A stretch of 64,000 bases of DNA. It comes from Deltaproteobacteria bacterium. GTDB lineage: Bacteria; Myxococcota; Kuafuiibacteriia; Kuafuiibacteriales; Kuafuiibacteriaceae. Made by a program: the position numbers and the translations under genes. Under the pieces are notes generated by a model. That model saw only the letters and a program-made list of their open reading frames with translations. It was not told the origin of the DNA and searched no databases. Shown piece after piece: positions 29,279 through 30,615 of the stretch. The stretch lies in assembly GCA_040218735.1 (NCBI GenBank), contig JAVJQW010000012.1:46880-110879 (forward strand), in the 5' to 3' direction. Every line of letters starts with the position of its first letter. The stretch's first letter is position 1.

Positions 29279-30524
29279 CGTTCGATGGGCGGGGTCTATG
29301 CGGGCGGTGTGGGATCGGGCGCCTCGCGCTTCGGAGGGTCCCGCATTCTGAACACGGGCCCCACACCCGAACACGGGGTGCGAAATCCTCTGAAGTAGCT
29401 CCATCCGGTCGAAGCTCCCCTCGCGGTCCCTAGCTAGGTACGCGCTTCGGAACGCCTCCGCGCACGGTCTCGAGCGTCTTCTTGTATCGCGCCGGTGCTC
29501 GAATCACTCGCCTGCTTCGCAGTCGTGTCGTGCTTCTCGTAGCCGAGGTGCGACGTGGACTCGCCCGCCAGCGCGCGCTCGACCTGCGGCGCCCGTCTGG
29601 ATCCCGATCGTCCGACCAGGGCGTTACGAAGTCTTCTGAACTATCTCATCCGGGAAACGCGAAGTTCCCCAGAAGCGCGCCGTGCACGCCAGGGTCCGCA
29701 CGGACATCACGGCGTCGGCCCCACGCCCGACGCCGACATCAAGTCACCGCGAGGGCGTCTGGGGTGCGCGTCGTACGAACGCGGCGTGTGCCCGATCGAG
29801 CTCCTCGTGAACGTCGACCAATCCCGGTAGCGCCCCGAACCCCACCACAACACCCGGAAGCTGAGCCACCGAAACTTCGATTTCGGTCCGGAGACACACC
29901 AATGCCGCCCCTCCCTCCAACTCGTCGACATCCAGCCCCCTTCTGCGACCAATCCCACCCACTCGCGCCCCACGCCTAACAACCCCACGAGGGACCCCAG
30001 TAGCCCACTGCTGATGCCGTCCGTGCAACGGCGGTCGAGGAAGCTCGGCCGTGACCACATCGATCGCTGGCTGGTGAGCGGAGAGGCTCGGGGCGTTGGC
30101 CGTGCGCCGTAACGATGGCCGTGCTGGTCGCGGTGCGAGGAGGCGCGCCGACTCGCGTGTACGCCGTGTCATTTCTCGGCCGTGGCCCTTGGGTCCGGGC
30201 GAGCGCGGGCGCGCGAGGTTTGCGGTGCAGAGCTCGCTCGAAAGGACCGCCTTTGGTGGGCGTTTGGCTTGGCTGCGTTTCTCGTGGTGTTGCAAGTTGT
30301 GTTGACGCGGCGCTCGTAGGCGCGACGCGGTGTCGAAGGGACGGACTGGGGATCGAGCTTGGTCAGCGCGCGGCACCACCGCCCAACCTTGGAGCCACCT
30401 GAGTCGTGACCCCAGAGCGCGTTTGGATGACGGTCGTCGCCAAGCCGACCGCTCGACGTGATCGCCTCGCTTCCGAAGCCCTCGGCCGCGCGGACCGCCT
30501 GCCGCGGCCGCTCCGACAAATCAC

Positions 30525-30565
30525 GCTCGCTCAATAAGTCGCGCCCGCTCCAATAAGTCGCGCCC
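30525..30565. repeat. tandem direct repeat (2 x ~20 bp, CTC(C)AATAAGTCGCGCCC) immediately upstream of the RAYT gene
   Basis: The sequence gctcaataagtcgcgcccgctccaataagtcgcgcccc is seen directly, and is followed by an AT-richer stretch before the ATG at 30616. Confidence 0.6.
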
Positions 30566-30615
30566 CCTCATTCGGACGCAGGCTGCAACGAACTGCTTGC
30601 CAACCGGGGATACAA

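Follow-up and report, generated by a model that had tools for sequence, protein, structure and literature searches.

What occupies the roughly 1.35 kb of DNA between the TANGO2-like gene and the RAYT-like Y1 (HUH) gene in this stretch of a Deltaproteobacteria genome (the window, 64,000 nucleotides, 69% G+C)? The gap, at 29279-30633, is composite. It is well supported that it consists of several unrelated pieces: neutral debris, including a relic of an IS256-family transposase; a single non-coding element of 205 nt, under selection, that accompanies the Y1 gene; and the region of the Y1 promoter. The 205-nt element most likely serves as a cis-acting site, recognised by the Y1 enzyme or by a regulator of Y1, and the explanation as a whole, a composite gap with such a site inside it, has in our estimate slightly better than even chances. 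Most of the gap is ordinary genome debris. Two leads of modest interest for an uncharacterised transposase-like family are the Y1-linked element and the promoter and leader shared across that family. The features on which the argument turns are:

29279-30633, no strand: the gap, about 1.35 kb between the TANGO2-like gene and the Y1 gene
30061-30266, plus strand: the 205-nt Y1-linked element, with weaker similarity over 30028-30275; core GGCCGTGCGCCG; four GCCGTG direct repeats
30597-30633, plus strand: putative Y1 promoter and short leader, with a -10-like box (TACAAT, 30611-30616) and, immediately 5' of the ATG, ATTCAAG (30627-30633)
30634-31320, plus strand: RAYT-like Y1 (HUH) gene, 228 aa; Pfam Y1_Tnp 35.4 bits (cut-off 23, a superfamily-level model)

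The window matched contig JAVKBZ010000079.1 of the metagenome-assembled genome (MAG) GCA_040222965.1 ('Deltaproteobacteria bacterium'). It was compared with the orthologous locus of the sister MAG GCA_040223155.1 (L009; 87% identity over window 29396-32000); with a more distant relative (L005; TANGO2 protein 75% identical), the only one of its kind recovered; and with loci carrying close paralogues of Y1, namely L006 and L008, 36 kb apart on one contig, L010, and L096, which comes from an unrelated sample. At least four diverged paralogous Y1 loci are present in GCA_040223155.1.

Among the paralogues, DNA similarity covered the coding sequence (82-87%) and one upstream block, which corresponds to window 30061-30266. 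Searches with nhmmer placed this element upstream of Y1, on the same strand, in L009, L006, L010 and L008 (E-values from 4e-55 to 1e-12) and in L096; the window, L009, L010, L008 and L096 have one copy each, and L006 has an array of four tandem copies, full or partial. A covariance model run over 389 kb returned nine copies, in six loci only (next-best match, E 0.045), and neither nhmmer nor the covariance model found the element at distant Y1 loci (80 metagenome loci, L091-L095). The distance from the element to the start codon ranged from 36 to 509 nt among the loci, with spacers that could not be aligned. Within the element, the 12-nt core GGCCGTGCGCCG did not vary among the six full-length copies and hardly varied among all ten aligned copies, and the positions of the GCCGTG direct repeats (30099, 30118, 30163 and 30179) were conserved, the background frequency of this hexamer being 0.8 per kb. 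The 3' third of the element was missing in L008 and L096. Deletions in L010 (5890-5930) and L096 (454-560) put the element beside a truncated Y1 coding sequence, or fuse it to one.

Between the orthologues the element was the best-kept block of the gap (window-L009 identity 91-93%, fourfold sites 85%), and among the paralogous copies its identity was 0.57-0.77, compared with 0.46-0.63 at the fourfold sites of the adjacent genes. Since its identity exceeds that of fourfold sites, the element diverges more slowly than synonymous sites, by a margin that is small for some pairs, and it is probably under moderate purifying selection as a nucleotide sequence. The alternative that it has no function of its own, being the leftover of an ancestral segment duplicated together with Y1 in a gap otherwise made of decaying DNA and a promoter, would account for the near-synonymous rate at which most of the gap evolves, for the window-L010 comparison (element 0.64, fourfold sites 0.62), for the several copies (L008, L010, L096) that are incomplete or run into a shortened Y1 gene and for the more distant family members that manage without the element. 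It accounts poorly for the window-L006 and window-L008 comparisons (0.73-0.77 against 0.53, and 0.61 against 0.51, respectively), for the core that stayed unchanged in all full-length copies, for the rank of the element as the best-conserved block between orthologues, and for a block that nhmmer still detects (E-values of 1e-12 to 1e-52) among paralogues whose spacers on both sides have become unalignable. A passive leftover of this kind is unlikely.

A second alternative is that the element encodes a small non-coding RNA or forms a long structured leader, co-directional with Y1 and acting on Y1 expression or together with the Y1 protein. All nine copies lie on the Y1 strand, the element is G-rich on its sense strand, and a weak terminator-like hairpin followed by a T-run marks its 3' end (30248-30262). 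A structured non-coding RNA was also among the suggestions of the preliminary description of this DNA, together with an Rfam/Infernal scan as the way to check it, and no positive support for it emerged: Rfam gave no match at the gathering score over the whole window and none at E ≤ 10 over 29200-31600, ARAGORN found no tRNA or tmRNA, and the fold z-scores of the element (-0.08, +0.29 and -0.20, both strands) were those of shuffled sequence. In the 5' domain, the part that recurs most often, ten aligned copies yielded no consensus structure and a positive covariation term. The local hairpins of the 3' domain paired above shuffles (87.9% against 81%, with 11 pairs changed on both sides against 6.4), but this test is circular, the six-sequence alignment being the one that had also yielded the structure, and part of the covariation signal, including several of the 'compensatory' cells, comes from L008 and L010, whose sequences there are not true homologues. 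Upstream of the element no promoter can be seen, and the 3' third absent from L008 and L096 includes the terminator-like hairpin. We regard an RNA of this type as quite unlikely. A REP-like palindrome was also considered and dropped, because neither the element, on both strands, nor the units of the neighbouring tandem repeats folded as DNA were more stable than shuffled sequence.

The cis-acting-site reading draws on what enzymes of this fold do: Y1 HUH enzymes of the TnpA-REP and IS200/IS605 types act on DNA signals beside their own genes, and a conserved block upstream of a Y1 gene could be such a signal. The IS256 relic and the surrounding DNA drift at about the neutral rate, without function; the element has remained beside the Y1 gene in all its duplications, and would be recognised as a DNA site by the Y1 enzyme or by its regulator, as the counterpart of a REP sequence or of an IS200/IS605 left end. 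It carries the four iteron-like GCCGTG direct repeats together with imperfect hairpins, and nicking or strand exchange there could also account for the local tandem amplifications around Y1 genes. The segment 30503-30633, with a 19-nt repeat, the -10 box and the A(A/T)TCAAG leader, is the putative regulatory front of Y1.

Several observations pull the other way. A plain transcription-factor binding region would fit the element equally well. The element lacks palindromic symmetry, and its hairpins do not exceed those of shuffled sequence in stability; no counterpart of it turned up on the 3' side of the Y1 gene, where the flanks are not shared among paralogues; the spacing to the gene varies (36-509 nt); and two loci have no tandem repeats. 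Y1 homologues at or below 65-70% amino-acid identity do without the element, which is therefore not essential to the protein family. The constraint estimate comes from only five to six effectively independent copies, in alignments of a kind that tends to inflate identity.

Known systems with Y1 enzymes share part of this arrangement. RAYT (TnpA-REP) proteins and their REP/REPIN sequences have in common with it the Y1 HUH fold (best structural match 4ER8, best NCBIfam match RAYT) and a conserved non-coding element that flanks the gene and is inherited with it. They differ in that the Y1 protein scores below the RAYT cut-off (42 against 80 bits) and carries basic N-terminal and C-terminal extensions; in that RAYTs are typically single-copy per genome, whereas at least four diverged paralogues occur here in one genome; and in the DNA partner itself, REPs being 20-40-nt palindromes, often in inverted pairs (REPINs), whereas the element measures 205 nt, lies on one side (5') and keeps a direct orientation, with no REPIN-like inverted-repeat pair standing out. 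REPs are moreover dispersed, and no copy of the element was found away from Y1 in the 64-kb window and the flanks of L006, L008, L009 and L010 (about 100 kb of two genomes). IS200/IS605 elements resemble the locus in their Y1 transposase fold, in their several copies per genome and in having a conserved non-coding segment 5' of the gene, where the left end sits. They differ from it in that the Y1 copies are 82-87% identical over the coding sequence only, that there is no conserved 3' end (ends and REPINs are paired in the known systems), that the element stands 36-509 nt from the gene and holds no hairpin beyond chance, and that the NCBIfam score is 22.5 against a cut-off of 55. Being long, non-palindromic, one-sided and not dispersed in the roughly 100 kb examined, the element is not of the REP/REPIN kind; with no partner end, diverged copies and variable spacing, it is not an IS200/IS605 end either.

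Some transposase genes are accompanied by RNAs. In IS110/IS1111 elements, a bridge or seek RNA is encoded in the upstream non-coding end. IS200 has a 5' untranslated region with the art200 antisense RNA (PMC4513863). The element shares with these a clade-specific, conserved, sense-strand non-coding segment of about 200 nt just upstream of the gene; it differs from them in lacking a stable or covarying structure and an Rfam match, and the enzyme class differs from that of IS110/IS1111 (Y1 HUH here, DEDD recombinase there). A more far-reaching idea, which we think improbable, is that the element is the dedicated nucleic-acid partner of a RAYT-like Y1/HUH clade, long, non-palindromic, gene-linked and passed on with each paralogue, and that it works either in the form of single-stranded DNA or through a transcript guiding or tethering the enzyme; it would then represent a third Y1-substrate arrangement beside REP/REPIN sequences and IS200/IS605 ends. 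To our knowledge, the understanding of RAYT-type enzymes has come only by way of the DNA signals cognate to them, so that a candidate signal for a new RAYT-like branch offers a concrete substrate for binding and nicking assays, and a handle on the role of these widespread 'transposases'. This branch carries two conserved non-coding signals: the promoter and leader, family-wide, and in the present clade the 205-nt upstream element.

The Y1 protein is an uncharacterised branch of the Y1 HUH superfamily. The HUH residues (H89, H91) and Y132 were invariant in the family alignment, and the best NCBIfam match was REP_Tyr_transpos (RAYT; 42.4 bits, cut-off 80), with transpos_IS200 at 22.5 bits (cut-off 55). 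The predicted model reached a mean predicted local distance difference test score (pLDDT) of 83, with a core above 90 and a disordered basic N-terminus; a fold search with this model returned as closest the E. coli TnpA-REP with its REP hairpin (4ER8), then the ISDra2, IS200 and IS608 transposases with their end hairpins, and a sequence search of the PDB with the Y1 profile gave no match. Amino-acid identity among the paralogues was 84-91%, against 46-63% at fourfold sites, indicating strongly purifying selection. More than 2,000 relatives of this branch were found in the search; they are common in high-GC soil and sediment metagenomes. No mention of the clade, looked for by taxon name, was found in papers on RAYT groups and on HUH phylogenomics. 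The basic N-terminal part of about 40 residues has been lost in several Y1 copies, the rest of the protein being under purifying selection; in L009 (1392-1400, corresponding to window 30634-30640), codons 1-2 of Y1 read ATG TAA.

Of the 78 homologous loci with enough upstream sequence (the set L011-L090, 41-57% protein identity), 54 carried A[AT]TCAAG, or a sequence close to it, immediately 5' of the start codon. In most cases a TAnnAT box came before it, and often also CTTGACA at sigma-70 spacing, a pattern suggestive of a conserved sigma-70 promoter whose leader is very short. From the position of this family-wide promoter and leader, the 205-nt element would lie upstream of the Y1 promoter and not in the leader. 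The window and its clade have no good -35 box, and a consensus promoter scan of 29000-31000 found no sigma-70-type site (0 found). The gene is bordered by two tandem repeats:

30503-30569, plus strand: 19-nt tandem repeat, 3.6 copies, TRF score 78, about 65-130 nt upstream of the Y1 start; contains CAATAAGTCGCGCCC twice exactly
31310-31459, plus strand: 60-nt tandem repeat, 2.3 copies, TRF scores 155 and 208, starting within the last codons of the Y1 gene

The 15-mer CAATAAGTCGCGCCC thus occurs 2 times, with 0.16 expected. The 60-nt repeat varies in copy number among close relatives: L009 (~2049-2160) is without 53 nt of it, and L003 (9140-9396), 99.8% identical elsewhere, has a longer variant array within which its contig ends. 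Tandem arrays are rare in these genomes: only three scoring at least 70 were found in the 64-kb window, two of which flank Y1, and L006 has tandem arrays on both sides of its Y1 gene. Strand nicking near Y1 genes would fit this pattern, which is in itself no evidence for nicking. In L006, at 4251-5500, the element lies within an array with a period of about 290-310 nt that also repeats the last ~43 nt of the upstream Lar_N gene and holds an internal 81-nt repeat in two copies; at 6698-6969, 3' of the Y1 gene, stands an unrelated 62-nt repeat in 4.4 copies; and the 12.7-kb locus has no further tandem arrays. Another Y1 subfamily, on four unrelated metagenome contigs (L047 2569-3990, L026 480-1010, L071 1-250, L090 1-445), has a divergent IS481-like gene upstream of Y1, with rve, HTH_32 and LZ_Tnp_IS481 domains in L047; three direct TGTCAGGGATGTC-like repeats lie between this gene and the Y1 promoter.

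The gap as a whole is truly non-coding. The preliminary description had seen no credible coding capacity here and named a conserved protein, found by a BLASTX-type search, among the things that would refute its interpretation; the lack of coding capacity was borne out. All open reading frames (ORFs) in 29279-30633 are rich in Arg, Pro and Ser, and no gene is called in the gap in four independent assemblies. The call rests on these missing gene calls, on substitutions between the window and L009 that show no 3-periodicity in the gap (e.g. 6/7/5 and 9/5/9, against 31/7/5 and 50/12/10 in the flanking genes), on indels of 1, 2, 4 and 19 nt that break the reading frames, and on the absence of protein homologues: a six-frame concatenated translation of the gap, searched against 5.8e9 proteins, gave none at E ≤ 0.01, and no intact protein came to light. 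The raw minus-strand frames of the gap had no match in Pfam, nor had the gap any in a phage collection. An unrecognised small protein gene, such as the 91-aa ORF at 29555-29830 (plus strand) or the ORFs overlapping the 205-nt element, could draw on the codon-like GC-phase pattern at 29690-30000 and on the 86-aa ORF that the gene caller placed across an element copy in L006; set against this are the flat substitution phases in the gap and in the element, the frame-breaking indels between the orthologues, the different reading frames of the window and L009, and the lack of a homologue in any frame, which leave such a gene very improbable and already close to refuted. An ORF hidden in the element itself was ruled out by its lack of codon periodicity. 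The GC content at 29690-30000 is about 0.65, 0.47 and 0.83 at codon positions 1, 2 and 3, like that of a plus-strand reading frame; the frame meets a stop at 29828-29830, is replaced by other frames in L009 and has no protein homologue, and the segment may be a very decayed ORF.

The remaining parts of the gap are the following:

29279-29382, no strand: spacer of about 104 nt, 49% identity in the window/L009 alignment and no L005 counterpart, hence shared with neither
29383-29645 (approximate), minus strand: IS256/Mutator transposase relic, frameshifted and truncated at its 3' end (low coordinates), about profile positions 22-95 of 379
29646-30027, no strand: C-rich tract, 80-88% identity to L009, about the level of synonymous sites (85%), with a hairpin at 29869-29886 and a weak codon-phase GC signal
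30267-30502, no strand: spacer between the element and the Y1 promoter region, without similarity to the spacers of L006, L008 and L010

That 29383-29645 is a dead fragment of an IS256-family transposase is well supported by its matches. It came to light only by blastn against plasmids and after correction of its frameshifts. The blastn search of the gap gave six weak matches (E 2e-4 to 7e-4), all over window 29524-29582, and four of the six fall inside genes annotated as IS256-family transposase or transposase. With one plasmid-encoded transposase, tblastn returned two collinear minus-strand matches in different frames, at 29491-29580 (ERALAGESTSHLGYEKHD) and 29408-29497 (ending RDREGSFD), and an equivalent collinear pair in L009. 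The L009 peptide, its frameshifts corrected by hand, matched PF00872 (Transposase_mut) at E 4.4e-9 and 36.1 bits (gathering score 21) over positions 22-86 of 379; the frameshift-corrected window peptide, more decayed, did so at E 5e-4 and 19.5 bits (gathering score 21). The NCBIfam IS256 model (NF033543) gave E 1e-5 and 0.013 for the two corrected peptides, and all 56 of the 56 database matches of the L009 peptide carry PF00872 (best E 1.5e-12). In common with the IS256 family, the relic has the conserved N-terminal motifs of PF00872 / NF033543 (..ERAL.GE.T.HLGYEKHD.. and ..PRDREGSF..), encoded across a frameshift; unlike a complete element it has no DDE domain, and is a pseudogene fragment. 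In the gap, tblastn gave no further match, and neither terminal inverted repeats nor a target duplication could be made out for the relic. It stops near 29383-29408, the same point at which the homology between the window and L009 stops. The relic was not found in other Y1 loci and is thus an independent, dead insertion; on the same ground, its absence from the other element-bearing loci, the 205-nt element was ruled out as a part of it. The decayed mobile element proposed in the preliminary description is therefore real over about 29383-29645, and the label holds for this part of the stretch only. The C-rich tract that follows is perhaps the 5' end of the IS256 relic plus other DNA. Its segment 29830-30010 was also considered as a duplicate of the exosortase upstream region and ruled out (score 24 against 21.4 ± 2.9 in shuffles).

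The two features that had first drawn attention to the gap, a duplicated 35-nt motif and a hairpin, are both present and neither is meaningful. The motif segments (29387-29421 and 29631-29670) form the best self-alignment of the gap, with a score of 34 that is barely above chance: dinucleotide shuffles averaged 27.2 ± 3.3, and 4 of 60 reached 34. Both copies fall within the IS256 relic, and their resemblance is not kept in L009, where the left copy has an 8-nt insertion and the motif several substitutions. The hairpin CCGAAA-CTTCGA-TTTCGG lies at 29869-29886. Including it, the gap contains three perfect 6-bp hairpins, about the number expected by chance, and this one is not conserved in L009.

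The preliminary description had also suggested that the gap was the target site of an inserted RAYT/exosortase block, to be checked by synteny over 29.3-36.8 kb. The flanking features that bear on this are:

28562-29278, plus strand: TANGO2-like gene (Pfam PF05742, E 1e-23; same call in four assemblies), the left flank of the gap
31470-31572, no strand: intergenic DNA upstream of the exosortase gene, ancestral by its L005 alignment; right edge of the indel
31573-33003, plus strand: exosortase EpsH gene, the right neighbour of the Y1 segment

By blastn, window 28581-29238 corresponds to L005 1-664 and window 31616-37898 to L005 854-7190, so that L005 has the exosortase-VIT-Hpt block (31616-37898) in synteny with the window, 77% identical. 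L005 has only about 100 bp between the TANGO2 stop and the exosortase start, and these align to window 31470-31572 (score 29, shuffle maximum 27). What the window has and L005 does not is therefore limited to about 29279-31470, some 2.2 kb comprising the gap (the left two-thirds of the segment), the Y1 gene and the 60-nt tandem repeat. Judged by this synteny, the exosortase block is ancestral and outside any insertion, and the gap, absent from L005, is part of the variable segment and not its target; the proposed insertion was wrong in extent. With the motif and the hairpin found to be without significance and the exosortase block outside any insertion, a false lead is removed. The occurrence of the Y1 gene in multiple copies and varied contexts favours an insertion in the lineage of the window, rather than a loss in L005, as the origin of the ~2.2-kb indel. 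At the left side of the gap, homology between the window and L009 begins near 29383-29396. L009 1-140 opens with the end of a different ORF (..KELESKGLIRRTPRTARSIELLLDPDDLPVLR*), which resembles the C-terminal part of a LexA-type winged-helix domain. Nothing corresponding to this ORF exists in the 64-kb window, so that the two genomes differ at the left junction of the segment they share.

In the gene order around the gap, all genes on the plus strand are, in sequence, a glycosyltransferase family 9 gene, the TANGO2-like gene, the gap, the Y1_Tnp/IS200-like gene (228 aa), exosortase EpsH, a VIT-domain gene, Hpt and a gene for a 232-aa protein, after which a ferrochelatase gene on the minus strand closes the local order. 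Other assemblies of the same organism have contigs ending at 29473 (L004, in the IS256 relic), 30882 (L002, in the Y1 gene) and about 31460 (L003, in the 60-nt repeat), as expected where assemblers meet repeated DNA.

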